From Promethearchaeota archaeon (lineage in GTDB: Archaea > Asgardarchaeota > Lokiarchaeia > Sigyniarchaeales > SOKP01), in assembly GCA_019057795.1 (NCBI GenBank), contig JAHLWS010000058.1:1-42078 (forward strand): 42,078 nt of DNA. The letters run 5' to 3'. The number at the start of each line of letters is the position of its first letter. Position 1 is the first letter of the stretch. This document shows, piece by piece, positions 2,604 to 35,274 of this stretch. The notes beneath the pieces were generated by a model, which was given only the letters and a program-made list of their open reading frames with translations, was not told the DNA's origin and ran no database searches. The position numbers and the translations under genes are program-made.

Positions 2604-3152
2604 TCATATTAATATATTTACTCCTATACCGATTAGAATAACCCCACCAATCAATTCGACTTTATTCCCGAAAAATTGACCAACTTTATTTCCAATAAGA
2701 ACTCCGAGGACGGAAAAACCAAAGGCAACAGTTCCAATTAAAATTATTGGAACTAAAATAGAGACGCTCAGAAGGGCAAAGCTTAATCCTATAGCCAACG
2801 CGTCGATGCTTGTTGCGATACCTAATAATATTAAAACTAAAAATTTGAGAGGGTTGATTTTTTTATCCTCGTCTAAGTCAGTTTTTCTAGATTCGAAAAT
2901 CATTTTAATTCCAATTACTAAAAGTAAAGCGAACGCAATCCAATGATCAATATTCGATATTAAATGTGCGATATACATTCCTCCAAGCCAACCTAAGAAT
3001 GTAAAAAATCCTTGGAAAAAACCCGTGGATGAAGCAATTTTTAAGGCGTGTTTTAATTTAACATCTTTGATAATGATTCCACTAGAGATTGAAACTGCAA
3101 AGGCATCCATTGCCAATGCAATTGCGATTAAAACTAATAAAATAAAATCCAT
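2604..3152 (-). CDS. mntP: Manganese efflux pump MntP family
   Basis: ALAMDAFAVS and ATSIDALAIG duplicated motifs, IDHWIAF. Confidence 0.92.
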   Translation of the reverse strand: MDFILLVLIAIALAMDAFAVSISSGIIIKDVKLKHALKIASSTGFFQGFFTFLGWLGGMYIAHLISNIDHWIAFALLLVIGIKMIFESRKTDLDEDKKINPLKFLVLILLGIATSIDALAIGLSFALLSVSILVPIILIGTVAFGFSVLGVLIGNKVGQFFGNKVELIGGVILIGIGVNILI

Positions 3153-3266
3153 AATTTAATTTAGAGTAAAATTTTTTTTAATCTACTTTATGAGCAAAAT
3201 AGTAAATTAAATTCTTTTAATAAACTCTATCTAATCAGAATAGAATAAGGATTTTGTGAGAAATAA

Positions 3267-4280
3267 ATGACTTTTCAAAATAATGATAAGAAAAAAATTA
3301 GCCAAGAACTAGATTTGGGAAAGAAATCTGTTGTAATTAAAGTTTCTAACCTTGTTAAGAGATTTGAGGATCTTATCGCTGTAAACGATGTTTCTTTTGA
3401 AATTTATGAAGGAGAAATCGTAGGTATTCTTGGTCCTAATGGTGCTGGTAAAACTACCACTATTCGATTATTAACTGGTATTTTTAAATTAGAAGACAAG
3501 GCAAGCATAGAAATTTTTAACGAGGATATAACAAAAAATCTAAGTAAATATAAAAAAAACTTTGGAATCGTTCCAGAAGTTAGTAATGCTTTTTCGGATT
3601 TTACTGTATGGCAAAACCTTAAGTTTTCAGGCGGTATATATGGTTTTCCAAAGGAAAAGATTGAAAAGCGCTCAAAAGAACTACTAGAACAATTTGGTTT
3701 AATCGATAAAATGCATTCTAAAACAAAAGCACTATCAAAAGGGCTTAAGCAGCGTCTTAATTTTTGTTTAGCGTTACTTCACGAGCCATCTATTCTAATT
3801 CTTGACGAGCCTACAAGTGGTTTAGATCCAATTTCCGTTAAATTAATGAGAAACCGTATTCTTCAATTGAAAAAGGAAGGTAAAACTATCTTAATTACTA
3901 CTCACGACATGCAAGAAGCACAAACCATTTGCGATAGAATTTTAATTATGAATAGAGGAAAGATCATTGCTGATGAAAGTCCTGATAAAATTCGCGAACG
4001 ATTTAAATCTACATCTACGATCCTATTTAAAATTGATGGTATTTTATCTAACGAGCAAAAAACTTCCTTGATGGACACATTCGATAGTATTAAGGAAAAA
4101 AACGAATATTACTCTATATCTAGCTACGACGTTTTAAAAGATATATCTAAGTTATATAATTATTCTAAAGAAAATAACTTAGAGATTTCTGATTTTAAAG
4201 TGAAAGAAACATCGTTAGAAGAAGTGTTTATCCATCTAATAAAAGAAGATTCAATTTCTATGGGAGGATTAGAAAAATGA
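3267..4280 (+). CDS. ABC-2 exporter ATP-binding subunit
   Basis: GPNGAGKTT, LSKG signature, ILDEPT, H-loop. Confidence 0.93.
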   Translation: MTFQNNDKKKISQELDLGKKSVVIKVSNLVKRFEDLIAVNDVSFEIYEGEIVGILGPNGAGKTTTIRLLTGIFKLEDKASIEIFNEDITKNLSKYKKNFGIVPEVSNAFSDFTVWQNLKFSGGIYGFPKEKIEKRSKELLEQFGLIDKMHSKTKALSKGLKQRLNFCLALLHEPSILILDEPTSGLDPISVKLMRNRILQLKKEGKTILITTHDMQEAQTICDRILIMNRGKIIADESPDKIRERFKSTSTILFKIDGILSNEQKTSLMDTFDSIKEKNEYYSISSYDVLKDISKLYNYSKENNLEISDFKVKETSLEEVFIHLIKEDSISMGGLEK

Positions 4281-5080
4281 TAAGCGATAGTCTAAATAGA
4301 ATTTGGATATTAAGTAAGAAAAACATCTCGCTCTACATAAAAAGAGGTCCCGTTTTAATTTTTGGGTTGCTATTTCCTTTCTTTATGACGCTTTCTTGGG
4401 CTATTGGTAGAGCCATCCCCATAAATCACGTATTTATTGGAATTGTATCTATGACTTCTTTCTTCACCGCAACAGCAATCAGTCCCGTAGTGCTCCCTAT
4501 TGAAACTCGTGAAAAATCGTTAGAAAGAATTTTAGTCTCTCCAATTTCATTGAACGAAATTTTATTGGGGATAGTCATCGCTTCGACTCTATATACACTA
4601 ATAATTACAACAATAATAACCGTTATCTTTATCCTATTGTTTTCAATAGTGTTTAATTCAATTGCAACGATCTTTTTAATGTTTTTAGGGATTGTTTTAA
4701 TGTCAATCCTAGGATCTCTATTGGGGGTTTTAGTTGCAGCATATCCTACAGATATGACTTCTAATGTGATGATTATCATGAATCTTATTAAGTTCCCTAT
4801 ACTATTTGTGAGCGGCATTTTTATTCCTCTTCATGGTTTGCCCCCTTATTTATTATTTTTATCCTTTATTTCACCAATAACCTTTCTAACGGACTTATTA
4901 AGATTCTGCGTAGACGGAAGCAATTTCTTTGCGTACCAATTTGATCTCGTCTTGCTAACCTTGTGGGTTGTTGTATTATTTATTTCAGGATATTTTCTAC
5001 ATAAAAAAACAATGCCAAAAAGGTTAGCAGAAACAAAAAAAATAAAAAAAAATAAAAATCAAAAAAAAATGAACAAATAA
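4277..5080 (+). CDS. ABC-2 exporter permease
   Basis: Six hydrophobic segments, LERILVSP, SGIFIPL; ATGA overlap with the ATPase. Confidence 0.88.
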   Translation: MISDSLNRIWILSKKNISLYIKRGPVLIFGLLFPFFMTLSWAIGRAIPINHVFIGIVSMTSFFTATAISPVVLPIETREKSLERILVSPISLNEILLGIVIASTLYTLIITTIITVIFILLFSIVFNSIATIFLMFLGIVLMSILGSLLGVLVAAYPTDMTSNVMIIMNLIKFPILFVSGIFIPLHGLPPYLLFLSFISPITFLTDLLRFCVDGSNFFAYQFDLVLLTLWVVVLFISGYFLHKKTMPKRLAETKKIKKNKNQKKMNK

Positions 5081-5101
5081 AATGGAAGTGTTGTCAAAAA
5101 A

Positions 5102-5401
5102 ATGAAAGATTTTCTGTCAGATTTAGAATTTTTGTCAGGTGAACCTCTGTTAAAGACGATTATTAAATCAAAAATGTTTAATATTAATCGCGTCTGCTTA
5201 GAAACAGGATTCGAAATAGAACCACACCCAGAACCTTACGCTGTATTTTTTTTAGTGTTAGAAGGCTCTGGAATATTTACAAGTGAAGCTGGAGAGGTCA
5301 CCCTTGAAAAAAATGGCTTTGTATTTATTAAAGCGGACGAAATAAGAGGGATTAAAACTCTTGAAAACTTAGTGTTTTTAGCTGTTCAGGATGGGCACTA
5401 A
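5102..5401 (+). CDS. Cupin domain protein
   Basis: IEPHPEP, VLEGSG, cupin beta-barrel pattern. Confidence 0.8.
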   Translation: MKDFLSDLEFLSGEPLLKTIIKSKMFNINRVCLETGFEIEPHPEPYAVFFLVLEGSGIFTSEAGEVTLEKNGFVFIKADEIRGIKTLENLVFLAVQDGH

Positions 5402-5528
5402 AACACCTTTTTTTTATATTTTTTTTATTAAATTTACAAGTAATTTTATAGTATATTCTAATCAGATTACATCTTAAAAACCTCAATATGAAGTAAACAT
5501 ATATAGTTAAAAAACAAAGTTATTATAT

Positions 5529-5921
5529 ATGCATAAGGAAGAAATTGAGCTTTTTCTAAAACGAGCTAGAAATTTTTTGGATGGAGCTAAAGAGAGATTT
5601 CAGAAAGAAGATTGGGATTTAACTTGTTTCATGGCAGAGCAATCTGTTCAACTTTTTATAAAAGCTATAATTCTAGAAAAAGGTGGTGAAGTTCCCAAAA
5701 CACATTCAATCAGGAAGTTATTTGGATTATTGTATCAATTGACTAAAGATAAGGTATTCCAATACGATAGAAAAACCTTAATATTTCTCGAAAGTGCGTA
5801 TTTAAACTCTCGATATTTTAGCTTTGTTTATGAGAAAGAAGATGCTAAAGAAGCTTTAAAAATTGCAGTAGAGGTAAAAGATCTTGTCGAAAATGTTAGA
5901 GATGATGATAAGAACGAATGA
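5529..5921 (+). CDS. HEPN domain protein (HEPN-MNT pair)
   Basis: CFMAEQSVQLFIKA, PKTHSI, YLNSRY; overlaps MNT gene. Confidence 0.88.
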   Translation: MHKEEIELFLKRARNFLDGAKERFQKEDWDLTCFMAEQSVQLFIKAIILEKGGEVPKTHSIRKLFGLLYQLTKDKVFQYDRKTLIFLESAYLNSRYFSFVYEKEDAKEALKIAVEVKDLVENVRDDDKNE

Positions 5922-6243
5922 TATGATTAAAAATAACAAAAAATATTTAAAAAAAATTGAAAGCAGTATAAAGACTATATTAAATGATTCTCAAATTTAT
6001 TTATTTGGTAGTATACTTAAAGGAGATCTAGTTGCTGGGAGTGATATAGATATATTGATAATTGCAGATGTTCCTAAAAAGCACTTGAAACGAGCAGAAT
6101 TAATCGCAGAAATCGAAGAAAATGCCGGATTACCGCTTAGTCACCCGTTTGAATTTCATTTATTAACTCAAGAAGAACTAAATACATGGATTAGAATTTA
6201 TAAGTTTAAGTTTGAGAAAATATCATCATATCTAGAAAATTAG
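5884..6243 (+). CDS. Minimal nucleotidyltransferase (MNT); true start may be ATG 5896
   Basis: LFGS-x10-DID motif (FGSILKGDLVAGSDID). Confidence 0.88.
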   Translation: MSKMLEMMIRTNDMIKNNKKYLKKIESSIKTILNDSQIYLFGSILKGDLVAGSDIDILIIADVPKKHLKRAELIAEIEENAGLPLSHPFEFHLLTQEELNTWIRIYKFKFEKISSYLEN

Positions 6244-6296
6244 AAAATAATCTATAGAAAATGTTAAGCTTTTAGATTTATATCATTTTAAATGTT

Positions 6297-7106
6297 TTAT
6301 TCTTTTGAAATATAGTATCTAAATTTATCGTCATCAATCTGCCACGCTTCAAAAAAATCAAATACCTTCTTAGTATCCCATAAATTTTCTATATTTTCAA
6401 TACCATTATAAAGATCTGTTAAAAGAGTTTTATCACAAGGATATCGTCTATGCGAAGGGTATATCTCAACAATTCCTTGATTTTTGCACAGCTTTATCAA
6501 TTTTAAAAGAGTATCAAGAACTTGGGGGAATTTATCTAGTCTAGGCAAGAATTGATCCCCATAATAAGCTACATCACTAGTAAAAAGTTCGCCTTTAGAT
6601 GTTAAAAGACAAATAGATCCCGGAGAATGTCCTGGACAATGCAGAACTTTTACATCTATTTCACCTAAGGTAAAAAGGTCTCCATCTTTTAAAGTTTTGA
6701 TTACTTTTGCGGGAGGAATTAAAAAATTTTGTTCTTCATATATCTTTACAATTTCATTAGGAGAATCCTTAAAGTAAGATACATTATAATGCTTAGAAAT
6801 CATTTTTGCTTCATTTTCATGAACATAAACCTCTCCAAATTCTTCATTACCCAAAATATGGTCCCAATGAGTATGTGTATTTATAACTATTAATTTTCTG
6901 TTCTGGATCAAACTCTCTACTAAAGGTTTTAAGGGAAAGAGACCACACCCTGTATCAACTAAAAGGGCAGAATGAGACCCTAAAATCAAGTATAGATTCA
7001 AAGGGTCATTTGTATAAACGGGATGGACAACAGAGATGTTTTCTTTAATAACATATAAATGCTCCTTATGTTTAGAAACTTTGAAATGCTGTTGTTCACT
7101 ACTCAT
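6297..7106 (-). CDS. Metallo-beta-lactamase fold hydrolase
   Basis: THTHWDH, PGHSPGS, SD, PSH motifs. Confidence 0.9.
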   Translation of the reverse strand: MSSEQQHFKVSKHKEHLYVIKENISVVHPVYTNDPLNLYLILGSHSALLVDTGCGLFPLKPLVESLIQNRKLIVINTHTHWDHILGNEEFGEVYVHENEAKMISKHYNVSYFKDSPNEIVKIYEEQNFLIPPAKVIKTLKDGDLFTLGEIDVKVLHCPGHSPGSICLLTSKGELFTSDVAYYGDQFLPRLDKFPQVLDTLLKLIKLCKNQGIVEIYPSHRRYPCDKTLLTDLYNGIENIENLWDTKKVFDFFEAWQIDDDKFRYYISKE

Positions 7107-7161
7107 ACTTTAATTAATGATTAATTAGTTTTAATAATAATTAAAAAATATCATAATTATC

Positions 7162-7929
7162 ATGGCAGACTATAAATTCTGGCTAACTAAAATCGAAGAT
7201 GGCATCTTTTGGCTCTATCTTAATAACCCTGATAAAAAAAACGCATTTGATCTTAAGGTTGTTAATGAATTGGACCAAATCCTAGAAGAAGAGATAAAGC
7301 AAAATTTAAACTTAATTCGCGTATTAGTATGCACTACTTCTATGGACGATATTTTTACCGTAGGGCTTGACATTAAATGGCTCGTAACTCTGGACGAATC
7401 TAAAGCAAAAGATATGACAAGGAAGTTACAGAAAATTTTTGGTAAGTTTGAAAGCATTTCAATCCCCGTTATAATGGCTATAAAGGGATTGAATCTTACG
7501 GCGGGATTTGAACTTATGTTGTGTGCAGATATTATCATTGCTGCCGATAACGCAAGATTTGGGCAAGTTGAGACAAAATGGGGTATGACACCTGCTGCAG
7601 GAGCAACTCAAAGATTAATTCGTTTAGTAGGACCTTTAAAAGCAAGAGATATTATATACACTTCAAGGATCATCGACGCCCAAGAAGCTTTGAAAATGGG
7701 TTTGGTTAATGAAGTTGTCCCGTTGATGGAGCTTGAGAATCGAGCCAAAGAAATGGCAAGAATGATGATACAAAATTCAGGTAGAGCAATTGCACTTTGT
7801 AAGCGATTGATTCAAGAGGGAATATATAATAACGAAATGGGGTTTCAAATGGAAGGAGAAGCTTTTCACGAGCTTTTTACTTCTGGAGAACCTAAAGAAA
7901 AATTAAAGGCGTTCTTAGAAAAAAAATAA
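7162..7929 (+). CDS. Enoyl-CoA hydratase/isomerase family protein
   Basis: NNPDKKNA, GFELMLCAD, FGQVE, GATQRL. Confidence 0.9.
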   Translation: MADYKFWLTKIEDGIFWLYLNNPDKKNAFDLKVVNELDQILEEEIKQNLNLIRVLVCTTSMDDIFTVGLDIKWLVTLDESKAKDMTRKLQKIFGKFESISIPVIMAIKGLNLTAGFELMLCADIIIAADNARFGQVETKWGMTPAAGATQRLIRLVGPLKARDIIYTSRIIDAQEALKMGLVNEVVPLMELENRAKEMARMMIQNSGRAIALCKRLIQEGIYNNEMGFQMEGEAFHELFTSGEPKEKLKAFLEKK

Positions 7930-28982: not shown

Positions 28983-29375
28983 TTAAATGAAATTTTTTGT
29001 TTCTAAATATTCAATTAATTCTTTTAGATATTTTTGTCCAGTTATTAATACATTTTCAGCATCAATTCTATTAATTTCAGTTATGTATTCATAGTCTCCA
29101 ATTAGCCTTTTGTCAAATATATCCCTAAGTTGTCTACCTATTTCTTTTGTGAAAATATTAGTTTTAATAAAAAATTCTCCAAATTTAGAAATTAAACCCC
29201 TATGAGTTTTTATTTTTAAATTTTTTGTGAGGAGAACATCTTCAGTAATATGATGCATAGCATAATAAGTTCTTGAAACCGTACTATCAAAATCGCCAGC
29301 ATCAAATAACAGTTTAGCACTTTTAATGAATTTTTTTGCCTTTTCAATTAAAGGTTTTATGTCTATTTCACTCAT
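28983..29375 (-). CDS. HEPN domain protein (MNT-HEPN pair)
   Basis: VSRTYYAMHH, KTHRG, KRLIGDY. Confidence 0.88.
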   Translation of the reverse strand: MSEIDIKPLIEKAKKFIKSAKLLFDAGDFDSTVSRTYYAMHHITEDVLLTKNLKIKTHRGLISKFGEFFIKTNIFTKEIGRQLRDIFDKRLIGDYEYITEINRIDAENVLITGQKYLKELIEYLETKNFI

Positions 29376-29686
29376 ATCAGAATTCCCTCTTCTTTAACAT
29401 TCATTAAAAACGGTGTTTTGAGTGATTGATAGTGTTCTTCTGAAATTGGATGAATAGAAAGAATTATATTATATTTTAAATCAAAATCATAGGCAATTCT
29501 TCCTATACGATCAATCTCTTCGAAAGCAGAGATCTTTCCTTTAAGAATTATTGCTAAATCGATATCAGAATGAGTGGATTCTTCTCTTCGAGCATATGAA
29601 CCGTAAAGAATTATCTTTTTTAATTTCTCCCCATATAATTTTTGAAGCTCTGATTTAAATTCTTTTAAAATTTTTTCAATCGTCAT
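29372..29686 (-). CDS. Minimal nucleotidyltransferase (MNT)
   Basis: LYGSYARREESTHSDID; ATGA overlap with HEPN gene. Confidence 0.9.
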   Translation of the reverse strand: MTIEKILKEFKSELQKLYGEKLKKIILYGSYARREESTHSDIDLAIILKGKISAFEEIDRIGRIAYDFDLKYNIILSIHPISEEHYQSLKTPFLMNVKEEGILI

Positions 29687-29947
29687 TAATGCTAATAAAC
29701 CATTTCAAATATAAATAAACATCTTATGTAATTTGTTAGAAAATTGTTGAAAAAATTATATAAATTTATCTGTAAACCTAGAGATTTTAAAGATTCTATT
29801 GTTATATTTTAAGATAAATCTTAAGATCTTTAAAAACTATATTTTTATATACTCAGTATCTAAGGAAGTAATTTTTTTCTATTAATTTTTATTCTTTTCT
29901 GAGCCGACATTATTCTCACCTTTTTGATACACCATTGTTAATTTTCT

Positions 29948-30995
29948 TTACGCTTCGAGAAATAAATCAACTAAAGCGTCTTGGTTGTCTTGTAAGGTCC
30001 ACTTTTGGCGTATCTTCCCTTTTTTACGACATTTTTTGAGCCATGCCTTGTTAATCTTCCACGAGTTATAAAGGAGCATTCGAACCAGCATGTCTAAGTA
30101 TCTCGTGTTATCGTGTTTCGACTTCCAGCGCCTACCCATCCGATTTAAGTCGGAAAACCCCGTCTCTATAAACCATCGTTTTTTATAAAATCGAGAAGTG
30201 CGGGACGCCCAAGAACTCGTATCGCCCCTAGGTTTTTGGGTAGTCATTACAGCATAAATTATCTTCATGGCATCGTCTAAACTTAATGTCCCTTTCTTAA
30301 AGTCTTGTTTAACGCTTGAAAGAGAGTATCCCTTTTTTGCTCTTAATAATAAATATAAATCTTGGGAGAATTGTTTTCCTCCACCAGGAGCGGTCGAAAT
30401 TGTATATCTTCTGATTCTTCTTCCCGTTCCTTTCAAATATTCTTCAATCATCATGTTAATTTTTTTGTATGATTTGGAAGGAATTAAAACCTCCCCTTTC
30501 AAGATTTTTATCTCCTTTAGAAGCTCAGCCTGGTAAAATTCGCGATCTATCATTACGTAATTTAATTCAAACCCTAAATTAATTAAATGCTCAAGAAATT
30601 TAAGAATCACGGGTATTTTAGATTGTCCTTTTGCGATTTGCTCTAATCCTGCGAAAAGGTGAATTCCTTTCGACAAAATTGAAAACCCCAAGTAATGTCT
30701 CATTTTTTTCGTCCCTTTGCCCCGATTTGTTCCCTTGATCATTTTATCACCCCGTTTCCCGTAGTAAGAATGCTCTGTAAAGTCAATTAGAACATTGACC
30801 ATTCTTGAAATGAGTTGTAACCTTAACGCTTCCATTAATTGATGGTCTAAGCACTCTCGTAGAATTACTCTTGCTTTTTCGAGCCCAATATGGCGTAAAA
30901 GCTTGTTTACTTCGGTTTGATGCGGGACTTCGCGCTTACTTCGCCCATCGGCATACTTTTTTTGCCTTCCTTTTTTTTTATTCAAAAAATACTTG
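29948..30995 (-). CDS. ISH3-like DDE transposase, exon 2
   Basis: LIDFTEHSYYG, MIDREFY, YKKRWFIETGF; joins exon 1 in frame after intron removal (426 aa total). Confidence 0.88.
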
Positions 30996-33303
30996 GTCGA
31001 GTAGGTCGGGGCTGTTACCAGCCCTTTCCCCTCTTGGAACCACACGTGAGAGTTTCCCTTCATGTGGCTCGAGCAGAAAGTTCCAATCGCGTCACCGCGT
31101 ACCCTTTCGCCGTTCAGCGTCACCGTTTCCAGGTTAATTAGGTCAAACGATAATATAACAATAACTTCAATTGTTTACATAGATGGTTATGACATTGCAT
31201 ATCTGATCTCCTCGTATCTCCTTCTTTTCCAGAACTCTTTAACTTTCGGGTCAGGATTTAAAGGAGACATATCACCTACTTTAAATTTATACTTTAATCT
31301 CTTGACATCACTCGCTTTACTTAACGTATATCCTGTTTTCGCGACCTTAAATGTCCATTTTTGACTTCCTGTTTTCTCATAGTATCTATCGTATATCCAT
31401 CTCTTTCCTTTTCCATCATTTTTGTGTCTTCTTACGCACCAACGCCATATTAATCTCCAAATTTCACTATCTACTTTTGAAAACACTTGATAGGCATCGG
31501 AAAATCTATAATACATAGCCCAACCCCGAATAATCGGGTTGAGCAGAGCTATAAACCTTCCCTGTTCCATCTGTTTATTAGCCCAGATGATTAATCTCAT
31601 ATGATCTAAGAATCTCTTGACTTTTTCTTTCTGCGGTTTGACATATAATTTCTGTCTCGGTTGTTCTATCGTAAAACCTAGGAAACTAAAGCCTTGTCTT
31701 TTATCCGTTATTCTTGTTTTCTCCCGCTTCAAGCTTAGTCCCCTATCCTTCAAGAACTTCGCCATTTTTGGGATGATGCGTCTCATCGCATCTTTCGTCT
31801 TTGTCATTACAATAAGATCGTCTGCATATACTACAGCCGACCCGTCCGTTCCGAGTACCTGTTGTAATCCATGTAAAGCTATATTAGCTAAGATAGGGCT
31901 TACGGGACTTCCTTGGACGATTCCTTTGGTCGTCTTATGTCTCTTTCCGTTGTCAATAATTCCGGCTTTCAAGCATCGTTTAATAACTCCATGGAATACA
32001 TCTAACCTGTCTAAGATCGTATCGTGTCTTATATTATCAAAGAATTTATTTATATCTGCGTCTAAAATAACTTTATCTCCTTTAATTAATTCCGAATATA
32101 TCATTTGTATTGCGTCCTGTGTACTCCTGCCAGGTCTGAAACCCATAACACCAGGATCTAACCGTGCTTCCCATTTTGCCGTAAGGGCAAAAGAGATTAT
32201 CGTCGTCATTATCCTATCCTTAATTGTCATTAGTCCCAAGGGTCGCTTCTCCGATTTAACATTATTTCTCTTCTTGCGTCCATGTATCACTTCCCTCCAA
32301 TTCTCCTGTGCTTTAGGTATATACCGCCTCAGCACGGGTTGGAATTTATGTGTTCTATAATCGAAATCTTCTTTGCTTAACTCCATTCTATCTTCCGAGG
32401 TCAAATAAACCTCTCCATCTATACCAGGTGTGGTTCGTCCCTTATTCTTCTGGGTAATTATATAAATCGCGAGTAATTTCGCAGATTCAGACCTAACCAG
32501 AAGTTTCATGAGATTCTTCACTCCCTTCTTATCGCCTTTCTTGGATGCCCTGTAGATCCTACCTTGAAGTCGCCTTACATCACGTTCCAGTTGAGACCAA
32601 TTAATCTCGTCCCACCAGTCGTTTTGTCTATAGATTTGTTCAATTTTCATTGTCTAACTCCTCATATAGTTATGGTTTCTTCATGGTGCTTTCTCAGTCT
32701 CCACCACTTTCGAAGTCAGCAGTCTTTCAACTCGGGGTATCCCTTCTATAAATTATTCTTTCATTATAGAAGCCCCTATCCACTCTATTACTGGGTGGCA
32801 TTCGCTTCCTCTTAGTTCCTATGCCCGCTAAACCTTCCCCCTCACTTACGCTTGGGATACCATTCCATGGACTTCTCCATGTATGGGGCTTATCGGGATT
32901 TCCAAGTTTCATACAATTGACTTTCATCGATTCCCTTAGGTATTGGCTCTTCCCCGACTGCTCTATGGTTGGAAAAATATTAAGTTGAAAATAATATTTA
33001 CAGGCAGTTTTGCCTTTTGGCAAGGTGTATCACTACTTTTCACCTCCAGCGAATTACGAGGTTTATCACCAATTCATTTTCATTTACCATAGGTATCCTT
33101 ACAAGCCTGCAGCAGGAGTGTAGTCTCCTCTGTCAGTACCTTTTTCTCCAAGGCTTCACAAGGGGTCATTACTGTCCCCCCATGCTTGGATAGTTACACT
33201 TATCCAACTTAAGGTCGGCTTCTTGAGGGCTTATCCTTTGATAAGCTTACCATTCAGTAATACTCAATGTTCCGCATTCAATTGTATGACTTACATGTCG
33301 CAC
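30996..33303 (-). ncRNA. Group II intron (IIB-like ribozyme, 2308 nt)
   Basis: 5' GTGCGA at 33303; 34-nt domain V GAGCCACATGAAGGGAAACTCTCACGTGTGGTTC (31070-31037) with AGC triad; domain VI ending CCTACTCGAC at 30996; EBS1/EBS2 identified. Confidence 0.95.
31187..32650 (-). CDS. ltrA: Group II intron reverse transcriptase/maturase, no endonuclease domain
   Basis: INW...RLQGRI N-terminus, TPGIDG, RPLG...DR, GFRPGRS, DINKFFD, QGSPVSP, YADD, FLGF, LNPIIRGWAMYY; GAGGAG SD; no C-terminal HNH. Confidence 0.96.
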   Translation of the reverse strand: MKIEQIYRQNDWWDEINWSQLERDVRRLQGRIYRASKKGDKKGVKNLMKLLVRSESAKLLAIYIITQKNKGRTTPGIDGEVYLTSEDRMELSKEDFDYRTHKFQPVLRRYIPKAQENWREVIHGRKKRNNVKSEKRPLGLMTIKDRIMTTIISFALTAKWEARLDPGVMGFRPGRSTQDAIQMIYSELIKGDKVILDADINKFFDNIRHDTILDRLDVFHGVIKRCLKAGIIDNGKRHKTTKGIVQGSPVSPILANIALHGLQQVLGTDGSAVVYADDLIVMTKTKDAMRRIIPKMAKFLKDRGLSLKREKTRITDKRQGFSFLGFTIEQPRQKLYVKPQKEKVKRFLDHMRLIIWANKQMEQGRFIALLNPIIRGWAMYYRFSDAYQVFSKVDSEIWRLIWRWCVRRHKNDGKGKRWIYDRYYEKTGSQKWTFKVAKTGYTLSKASDVKRLKYKFKVGDMSPLNPDPKVKEFWKRRRYEEIRYAMS

Positions 33304-33536
33304 TTCAACCTTTCGCTGGCACTATCTATAGACCTTCCGGTCATTTCGGAATAAAAAAAGACTCTAAGAAAGTCCTCAGCGTCATATCTTGCGTTTTTAC
33401 CTTTTCTACACCCCCACATTTGAGATTTGATTGCGTCACAAAAGTTTTTAAAAAATGCTAACATATATTCATTAGAGAAAAGTGGTTTTAACTCAGCTTC
33501 CAAATCTGAAAGTGGAGATAAATATTTTATGCGCAT
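33304..33536 (-). CDS. ISH3-like transposase, exon 1
   Basis: 77 codons + 2 nt (MRIKYL...SASERL AA|) ending exactly at the intron GTGCG boundary. Confidence 0.85.
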
Positions 33537-33559
33537 ACATAAATATAGCCACTTTTCTC

Positions 33560-33601
33560 TTATAAATTTTTAGGTAGATTCCCACTGGAAACAAGTGGGA
33601 A
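33560..33601 (-). promoter_or_regulatory. Transposase promoter: TATA box plus upstream palindrome
   Basis: TTTATAA (33566-33560) ~24 nt before ATG 33536; TTCCCACT-N7-AGTGGGAA at 33579-33601. Confidence 0.55.
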
Positions 33602-33844
33602 AAAATAATAGTTAGATAATAAAAATTAGAAATAAATATTAATAGAAAAAGATTCAGTTAAAGAGGATTTAGAGTTCTACTTCCTTTGATACTGATACTG
33701 AATATTTATGCAAAAAATGACAATAAGTATTAATTTGGCACATTAGTCATAAAAAATTAGTTTAAACTATGCCTAAATAATCTCTTTCGTATAATTCTTA
33801 TAAAAACAAATGATTCTTAGATTATTAAAAAAAAAAAGGATTAT

Positions 33845-34174
33845 TTAAAAGCCAAGTTCCTCGAGCTTTGCTTTATTTTCTGCTACTTTTTCTGGATCAA
33901 GTGGATAGAATTTCCAAAAAACTAATACACCTAGTAAAAGAACGCACATAGGTATAATTCCTATTAGAAATCGAAGCCCCCATTGTATCAGCTCAACATT
34001 TGCTCCGCTGGCAATTAAATCTTCTAGAGTTGAAATTCCCGCTGGAAACATCGTTATAGCAAATACAATTGTAATAAATAATTCGTCAAAGAAACTTGTG
34101 AATCTGCCTATCAGTGCCCACGTTCCTAATATCATGCCTTTCTGGTTTTTTCCTGTTCGTACAACATAATCAAA
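33845..34174 (-). pseudogene. 3' remnant of an MFS/GPH-family transporter
   Basis: FDYVVRTGKNQKGMILGTWALIGR...FWKFYPLDPEKV; only the last two TM helices; overlaps the UROD-like gene end. Confidence 0.75.
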
Positions 34175-35274
34175 TTTCTTATAGGATAAGTTCCAAACTT
34201 CTTAACAGTCTCAACCATAGCTTTAATGTTTTCATATTTGCACGTACTTAAAATATCAGAACCAGCACCCAAAATAAACCCTCCACTCTCCGCAGCATCT
34301 TGTAGAGCTTGTTTTGTAGCTTCTATTGTAGTCTCTAGTGAACCATATGTCAAAACATAAGTAGCAGAGATATTACCAATCAAACAGATTTTTGATCCAT
34401 ATTTTTGTTTGAGAGGTTTTAGCCTCATACCGGATTCATACTCTAAAGGTTCAATAGCATCCACTCCAGAATTAATAAGAAATGGTATAGTTTCAGTTAC
34501 ATCTCCATCTGAATGAATAAGTAATTTAGCATCATGTTTGTGAGCATTATTAGCGAGCTCTCGATACACGGGAGTTATAATTTCATTCCAATGTTTGGGA
34601 TTAAATATTGTACTTCCCTTTAACGCCCAATCATCACAAATAAAAACCATGTCAATCCCTTTTTCAAAAAGACAGTTTTGTAATTCTTTAGTTATTCTCC
34701 CTAAAGCTTTGGCAAGATCCTTAACTAAATTAAAGTGTTTCCTTATCATATAAGCAAATCTATTTATCCCTATCATTGACCAAGTCGCGAACGCTACAGA
34801 GCCCCCAGTAGGAATTGTAACCAAACCTTTTTGAAGATAATTTTCCCATATTTTTTTAAAAGATTTAAAATGTATTTCTCCAGCAGGTTCCCATGTTTTA
34901 ATATATGTGATCCATTCTTTCAGTAATTCTGGCGTTTTAAGTACTCCATCTTGATACCACTCGCCTTTATAATAATGACCCCATTCGTTGTAGGAATCTA
35001 TATTATATTCTTTTAAGATTTCTTCTGGAACTTCCGGTTTTTTATGAGAGTGTGTTCGAATTCTATCATAGTGATACCAGATGGAATCAAATCCCATATA
35101 AAGCGCTGCATCATACATAGCATGCTTAGAAAGAGGATTAAGTGGTTTATCATCAATACTCATCTTATCTACTACCTTTTTAGTAAATGGATAATCAAAA
35201 TATTGTGCTAAGGTGGGAACTCGGTCTGGTTCCTCAAATTCCAATGTTTTTATTATACGTTCATGTGCATCCAT
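34132..35274 (-). CDS. Uroporphyrinogen decarboxylase / MtaA-CmuA-like TIM barrel
   Basis: FEEPDRVP, ICDDWA, HSDG, IEPLE, GNI, GGFILG, G.YP. Confidence 0.88.
   Translation of the reverse strand: MDAHERIIKTLEFEEPDRVPTLAQYFDYPFTKKVVDKMSIDDKPLNPLSKHAMYDAALYMGFDSIWYHYDRIRTHSHKKPEVPEEILKEYNIDSYNEWGHYYKGEWYQDGVLKTPELLKEWITYIKTWEPAGEIHFKSFKKIWENYLQKGLVTIPTGGSVAFATWSMIGINRFAYMIRKHFNLVKDLAKALGRITKELQNCLFEKGIDMVFICDDWALKGSTIFNPKHWNEIITPVYRELANNAHKHDAKLLIHSDGDVTETIPFLINSGVDAIEPLEYESGMRLKPLKQKYGSKICLIGNISATYVLTYGSLETTIEATKQALQDAAESGGFILGAGSDILSTCKYENIKAMVETVKKFGTYPIRNLIMLYEQEKTRKA

Follow-up and report, generated by a model that had tools for sequence, protein, structure and literature searches.

Does a transposase gene that is interrupted by a group II intron in an Asgard archaeon remain a working gene, restored by splicing, and does splicing then act as a control on transposition? 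This question is raised by an insertion sequence (IS) in a stretch of 42,078 nucleotides, contig JAHLWS010000058.1 of assembly GCA_019057795.1, which was analyzed as a whole and is called the window here. Its source is a Promethearchaeota metagenome-assembled genome (MAG). An earlier note, made from the sequence alone, had described a sense-oriented group II intron within an ISH3-like transposase gene, and this description is borne out by the present analysis: the intron is intact-looking and can be delimited exactly. We regard it as highly probable that the conserved codon 78 (Asn) of the ISH3-like transposase of this Promethearchaeota (Loki-type) archaeon was the target of a mobile group II intron, which retrohomed there in sense orientation. 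A selfish intron that homes into a conserved IS site, a parasite on a parasite, fits the observations better than does an evolved regulatory device.

Structure of the split gene and its intron

The transposase gene and its intron are arranged as follows:

33536-33304, minus strand: transposase exon 1, 233 nt (77 codons and 2 nt), 3' end GAAAGGTTGAA
33303-30996, minus strand: group II intron, 2308 nt, GTGCGAC...CTACTCGAC, splitting codon 78
31187-32650, minus strand: intron-encoded protein, 487 aa, reverse transcriptase (RT, with YADD) and maturase, intron nt 654-2117
30996-31072, minus strand: ribozyme domains V and VI, RF00029 match of 55.8 bits over model positions 1-77 of 77
30995-29948, minus strand: transposase exon 2, 1048 nt, from the third base of codon 78 to the stop, with the DDE catalytic domain

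Joining the two exons, with the predicted junction GAAAGGTTGAA/CAAGTATTTT, gives 1281 nt that encode 426 aa without a stop (...SASERL-N-KYFLNKKKGR...), and about 25 homologues that have no intron are colinear with exon 1 in their N-termini. In the unspliced RNA the frame of exon 1 would meet a stop 4 codons into the intron (intron nt 11-13), with an 81-aa product ending in ...SERLKCDM*. Plain calling of open reading frames (ORFs) breaks the locus into three unrelated-looking ORFs of 81, 487 and 391 aa, the last of which starts at a GTG within the intron; gene callers thus fragment such transposases into three spurious ORFs. The transposase residues D149, D228 and E355, together with Y348 and R351 (YKKRWFIE, the Y-x2-R-x3-E signature), are invariant in 17 homologues, as is N78, whose codon the intron splits. 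Exon 2 matches the Pfam domain DDE_Tnp_1 (E 2.5e-9). The best NCBIfam family for the transposase is ISH3 (NF033541, E 4e-29), with a score of 101 bits against a curated cut-off of 225, and for this reason we speak of an ISH3-like element.

The boundaries of the intron are fixed by gap-free intron-less copies of the IS, by the end of the RF00029 match and by the 5' GTGCG. RF00029, the Rfam model of domains V and VI, has a cut-off of 40 bits, and the 3' end of the match falls exactly on the predicted 3' splice site (30996). The AGC triad of domain V lies within GAGCC, and an unpaired A at 31002, 7 nt from the intron 3' end, is a candidate branch point. An alignment of 13 introns from the same Asgard archaeal order contains compensatory changes at 20 of the 26 base pairs of these two domains. 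The intron termini, GTGCG at 33303-33299 and ...CTCGAC at 30996, fit the GUGYG and AY ends of group II introns. The coordinates and sequences given for exons and intron in the earlier note all hold, and so do its open spliced frame, its three DDE motifs, its intact domains V and VI and YADD-bearing RT, and its remark that an ORF track mis-calls the gene.

The reading frame within the intron is preceded by GAGGAG, 7 nt upstream of its ATG. A Pfam search places the domains RVT_N, RVT_1 and GIIM in the protein, which scores 275 bits against TIGR04416, slightly under the equivalog cut-off of 300; a domain search of its 487 aa found no HNH endonuclease domain. Its closest relative of solved structure is the T.el4h IIB maturase (6ME0_C, E 1.7e-76, residues 12-467), and this match is far ahead of those to IIC or IIA proteins. 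Close relatives of the RT come from sediment metagenomes and Promethearchaeota MAGs. One protein, P0015, with an 83%-identical RT, is labelled Patescibacteria and probably reflects a mis-binned short contig rather than a transfer.

Guide sequences that would direct the intron to its site were located in the exon (intron-binding sites, IBS) and in the intron (exon-binding sites, EBS), along with part of domain I:

33304-33310, minus strand: IBS1 GGTTGAA, the last 7 nt of exon 1, complementary to EBS1
33312-33319, minus strand: IBS2 CCAGCGAA, complementary to EBS2
33046-33053, minus strand: EBS2 TTCGCTGG, intron nt 251-258
32983-32989, minus strand: EBS1 TTCAACT, intron nt 315-321, in the loop of hairpin AAATATTA/TAATATTT
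33125-33214, minus strand: part of domain I, weak match of 29.4 bits to Rfam group-II-D1D4-7 (RF02012)

EBS1 and IBS1 form 7 base pairs (6 Watson-Crick and 1 G-U), and EBS2 forms 8 Watson-Crick pairs with exon 1 positions -16 to -9. The two IBS elements lie 1 nt apart on the exon and the two EBS elements 64 nt apart in domain I; guides of equal order and spacing arose in 38 of 20000 shuffles. IBS2 is conserved across the IS family, with 7-8 of its 8 positions able to pair in 23 homologues. No EBS3 was located in the intron, and a IIA-type (delta-delta') reading was rejected: the base 5' of EBS1 (T) cannot pair with the first base of exon 2 (C). The best PDB match and the Rfam D1D4-7 model, on which two matches the class is founded, assign the intron as IIB-like.

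Empty sites, occupied sites and the host element

The earlier note had proposed a BLASTN search for intron-less copies carrying the predicted junction, and such copies exist, with exactly GAAAGGTTGAACAAGTATTTT at that place. One of them lies in a congener (G009:C315, JAUWNA010000572); its 1533 bp align without gaps at 91% identity, and about 50 nt around its junction are identical to the joined exons. Within the genus G009 is the only genome with the ligated-exon sequence (1 of 42). About 25 further homologues in Promethearchaeota MAGs are intron-less and all are colinear at the junction. Metagenome contigs were scanned with the 19-mer that ends exon 1, which returned 15 IS sites without the intron and 1 with it, besides 7 unrelated matches. 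Five full-length intron-less copies from metagenomes display 93-95% identity with 0-1 gaps. Among all intron-less copies, L021, L111, L104, L109 and L099 align over 1533 bp without a gap and L119 with 1 gap. L021 and L109 have a junction identical to that of the joined exons, and L109 (marine-sediment set LAZR01) carries the exact predicted ligated sequence. Occupied and empty sites occur together in one metagenome, JABUBN01 (L078 and L105, respectively).

The source genome (G000) has two occupied IS copies at different loci, one on the contig of the window (C58) and one on C8, with its right end probably on C14. The two junctions found there are both occupied; an empty one was not detected. 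Traces of the intron in this short-read MAG, which gives no measure of its copy number, are the full C58 copy, 78 nt of intron where C8 ends, and a fragment of the RT (53 aa) on C19. A reading of C58 and C8/C14 as a single locus, with the same AGTAT duplication, was rejected since the flanks differ beyond 5 nt; the identical duplications may reflect a target preference.

Some contigs of other assemblies end or change near the site. In the only occupied site of the metagenome scan (L106, SDBS01029867.1, 3348-3976) the similarity to the intron ends after 238 nt and no RT ORF follows; truncation of the intron, another insertion or a chimeric contig may account for this. In the congener G028 two contigs with the left part of the IS (C94:1 and C48:1) start at a distance of 3 nt from the intron insertion point, and several more end within exon 2; the assembly graph may branch here, with occupied and empty copies as its arms. 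The G028 MAG (Loki_b31) yielded no copy of the intron itself.

Introns at the same site, encoding a 91%-identical RT protein, were found in three places, and the IS variants that harbour them have diverged to different degrees. Exon 1 of L078 is 97% identical to that of the window; in L076/L077 exon 1 is 86% and exon 2 is 73% identical, and in L091 the 5' part of the IS is 85% and exon 2 is 77% identical. The ribozyme parts of the L076/L077 and L091 introns share 96-98% identity with the window and their RTs 93%, whereas their host IS share 73-86%. An intron that is far more conserved than its hosts argues for retrohoming between IS lineages, and this comparison of intron with host conservation suggests that the move was recent. 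More distant relatives, with RTs of 72-85% identity, occupy other targets: L079, for example, lies in another group II intron, and L096 upstream of an IS110 gene. EBS1 and EBS2 covary with the 5' exons in the relatives L079, L080 and L096; examples of EBS1/IBS1 pairs in such relatives are CTGCAC/GTGCAG, CATGGC/GCCATG and GGGTTT/AAACCC.

Three further observations concern these relatives. L079 (GCA_004524535.1, SDNY01000040, a Promethearchaeota MAG, 2780-7354) is a twintron, with an inner intron at 3346-5651 that is 84% identical to that of the window; the outer intron has its domain I at 2856-2992, its RT at 5718-7175 and its domain V at 7278-7354, and an IS110 transposase gene adjoins it. In L094 (DXJM01000227.1, 1689-3985, RT 78%) the EBS1 loop finds no complement in the 5' exon, which has GGTCAG, in the same sense as that loop. 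Three loci from the same genus (L009, L010 and L011, in G026, G028 and G034) harbour another group II lineage with RTs of 45-46% identity at AT-rich, apparently intergenic sites ending in TATTTAAAGRAAAAA before the intron, with no ORF across the junction.

The IS spans 29854-33694, or 1533 bp minus the intron, with ends placed by comparison with other copies; the left end is supported by an alignment of five left ends. Its outer features are:

29849-29853, no strand: right copy of the target-site duplication, ATACT on the plus strand, AGTAT in element orientation
29854-29871, plus strand: right terminal inverted repeat, CAGTATCTAAGGAAGTAA, where homology with other IS copies ends
33537-33694, minus strand: 5' leader of the IS, including the left inverted repeat at 33677-33694, CAGTATCAAAGGAAGTAG
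33695-33699, no strand: left copy of the target-site duplication, ATACT on the plus strand, the same 5 nt as at the other end

The terminal repeats are 18 bp long, CAGTATC[A/T]AAGGAAGTA, and match at 17 of 18 positions. The leader is 89% identical to that of the intron-less copy L021 and contains, about 27 nt upstream of the transposase ATG, a TTTATAA that may be a TATA box. L043, an independent copy of equal length (1533 bp), has the 5-bp duplication ATTAT, and L031 of G028 again has AGTAT; the congener G005 is roughly uninterrupted across the empty IS insertion point. Members of the ISH3 family have inverted repeats, a target duplication of 4-5 bp and a single ORF in about 1.2-1.5 kb (ISfinder), and the 18-bp repeats, 5-bp duplication and 1533-bp length of this element are within the ranges of that type. 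Paralogous transposases on C56 and C60 are about 67% identical, and the tip of their IS agrees over 13 nt. Isolated pieces of the left end of the IS, at G000:C64:2323-2515 (193 nt, 93%) and G000:C4:22458-22501 (44 nt, 91%), are remnants of further copies. A homologue of the IS on a 2.5-kb contig binned as Nitrosopumilaceae (L057, DATKYM010000031.1) is probably mis-binned rather than a transfer.

The earlier note had also supposed an Asgard archaeal host, and here it was right. The congeners G009 (JAUWNA01, CSMAG_2412) and G028 (NJBI01, Loki_b31) are Promethearchaeota, the archaeal phylum formerly known as Lokiarchaeota or Asgard, and the IS family is almost confined to Promethearchaeota MAGs. 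The genes on either side of the IS recur in many congeners at 80-94% identity, which argues that the contig is not a contaminant. On the left side of the IS (34132-35274, minus strand) is a gene of the URO-D family (MtaA/CmuA-like methyltransferase fold), 80-83% conserved in at least 8 congeners. Beside the right end (28983-29686, minus strand) are a HEPN ORF (130 aa, Pfam HEPN E 1.5e-14) and a 104-aa minimal nucleotidyltransferase ORF (NTP_transf_2/Polbeta) with a 4-nt overlap, a typical HEPN-MNT toxin-antitoxin-like pair.

Proposed mechanism and alternative explanations

The arrangement suggests the following course of events. The IS promoter would give rise to one RNA containing exon 1, the intron and exon 2. 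Ribosomes on exon 1 would halt 4 codons into the intron, and the intron protein would be made from its own GAGGAG-ATG and would aid folding of the RNA (maturase-assisted lariat splicing). The branch A would attack the 5' splice site and ligation of the exons would follow; production of the 426-aa DDE transposase would have to await this step. Once excised, the lariat-protein particle would find an intron-less IS through EBS2/EBS1 pairing (CCAGCGAA-A-GGTTGAA) and reverse-splice into it. As the intron protein is without an endonuclease, priming would probably be by nascent DNA at replication forks, as in the bacterial intron RmInt1. For introns of this endonuclease-less kind a preference for the lagging-strand template is expected. 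For the intron the IS would be a harmless landing site and a vehicle, and any damping of transposition a by-product. Gating of transposition by splicing would be a logical consequence for the protein encoded in cis only; the paralogous transposases, whose IS have an identical 13-nt tip, might act in trans. The functional split protein-coding gene of the earlier note stands in part, in that excision restores a conserved 426-aa DDE transposase; this gene belongs to a mobile element, however, and not to the host.

Several points weigh against this interpretation. Splicing, the lariat and the ligated mRNA are predicted from DNA sequence, and the priming step is carried over from bacterial introns without endonuclease. 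The interior of the second copy in the source genome (C8/C14) is unassembled, so that only its 5' junction is seen. The RT and the transposase have dN/dS ratios of 0.16 and 0.15, respectively, which average over their whole history and are no proof of selection after arrival of the intron. Finally, the score of the window intron for RF02012, the model of domains I-IV, is under the cut-off of 34; relatives at 74-86% identity score 40-56 bits, above the cut-off (L079, L080 and L082 pass).

An improbable alternative, in our judgement, is an evolved regulatory device, in which intron and IS are a co-adapted pair and the efficiency of splicing sets the rate of transposition. In such a lasting partnership the unspliced RNA would give the 81-aa N-terminal peptide, which might be inhibitory, and the spliced RNA the full transposase, with splicing as the switch; if true, an archaeon closely related to eukaryotes would regulate a protein-coding gene by splicing. 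It would agree with the occupancy of every assembled copy of this IS subtype in G000, where no empty junction was found, and with the persistence of intron-IS composites in several populations. The position of the intron, between the N-terminal region and the DDE domain, means that unspliced RNA encodes an N-terminal fragment only, and a similar idea is in print for RmInt1 in ISRm2011-2 (PMC4238363). However, the intron-less state is common: empty sites outnumber occupied ones by 15 to 1 in the metagenome contigs, and the IS copies found in other MAGs are all intron-less. The intron is also younger than the divergence of the IS variants that harbour it, which points to horizontal homing and not to co-descent, and its close relatives occupy quite different targets, another intron and sites beside IS110.

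About equally unlikely is that the intron does not splice in vivo, or never did so efficiently in this host, and that the IS copy is an inactivated pseudogene which looks intact since the insertion is recent. The low RF02012 score of the window copy and the assembly of one full intron copy only in the genome would suit such a dead end. Against it, all diagnostic motifs are intact (GTGCG, AGC triad, bulged A, YADD and EBS/IBS pairing), the dN/dS ratio of the RT is that of a protein under purifying selection, the ribozyme segments are 96-98% identical where the ORF is 93% identical, three diverged IS variants that hold the intron have open exons, and the intron has evidently spread recently. A mis-joined intron and IS, or a bacterial contig, in this MAG of 87 contigs with an estimated contamination of 7.5%, in which repeats break contigs at this element (C8 and C14), is effectively refuted by the same two junctions in independent assemblies (C8 of the own genome, L076, L078, L091 and L106), by the conserved flanking genes and by the near-restriction of the IS family to Promethearchaeota MAGs.

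Relation to known group II introns

Genes of mobile elements are the usual habitat of prokaryotic group II introns. Both an intron within an IS transposase and the presence of group II introns in Asgard archaea have been published before. In Sinorhizobium meliloti, the group II intron RmInt1 lies within ISRm2011-2, and its splicing has been proposed to limit the spread of the IS (PMC4238363, PMC3035460). Like RmInt1, the intron of the window encodes an RT/maturase without endonuclease, lies in sense orientation in an IS and would home into intron-less copies under the direction of EBS/IBS pairing, as judged here from sequence. It differs in its Asgard host, RmInt1 being bacterial, and in its ISH3-like IS, which is of another family than the host IS of RmInt1; its RT also differs from an RmInt1-type protein in that the closest solved relative is the T.el4h IIB maturase.

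With the group IIB ribonucleoprotein of T.el4h (Thermosynechococcus elongatus, PDB 6ME0), which carries the closest solved protein, the intron shares the possession of both EBS1 and EBS2. That system is cyanobacterial, and its protein chain is 562 aa long versus 487 aa here. The extra C-terminal part of the T.el4h protein, which is lacking in the window protein, holds its DNA-binding and endonuclease region.

Methanosarcina introns reportedly home mostly into the ORFs of other introns. The target here is instead a conserved codon of a DDE transposase, and the host belongs to a different phylum. Archaeal group II introns have been described in Methanosarcina and other Methanomicrobia (Dai and Zimmerly 2003, as cited in PMC8919778). 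The window intron resembles those of the Methanomicrobia in being archaeal and in encoding an RT/maturase, and its relative L079 is nested in another group II intron. A prokaryote-wide survey of 2022 did not cover Asgard genomes (PMC8919778). Group II intron maturases are known from Lokiarchaeia, Heimdallarchaeia and other Asgard lineages (Mattick, Malik and Delwiche, bioRxiv 10.1101/2024.12.10.627823; Vosseberg and Snel 2017, PMC5709842). Those papers work at the level of proteins and phylogeny, and the terms 'transposase' and 'insertion sequence' are absent from the preprint (10.1101/2024.12.10.627823). What this locus adds to them are boundaries exact to the nucleotide, the pairing of guides with their target, empty sites and evidence that homing was recent.

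We thus have a nucleotide-exact Asgard group II intron that appears to bear every sequence mark of current activity: matched guides, empty and occupied sites in the same environments, and spread over diverged IS variants. For RT-PCR or assays of retrohoming, the junction, EBS/IBS elements and target are now available as defined sequences. Spliceosomal introns presumably descend from group II introns, and it is debated whether the archaeal host of eukaryogenesis already carried active ones. Since the split gene is that of a mobile element and not of the host, it says little about how spliceosomal introns arose, and the locus shows neither introns invading host genes nor a new mechanism. The intron behaves like bacterial group II introns, as a resident of a mobile element and not of a host gene, and this residence supports a view of Asgard introns as ordinary prokaryote-style retroelements rather than as a step toward intron-rich genes.

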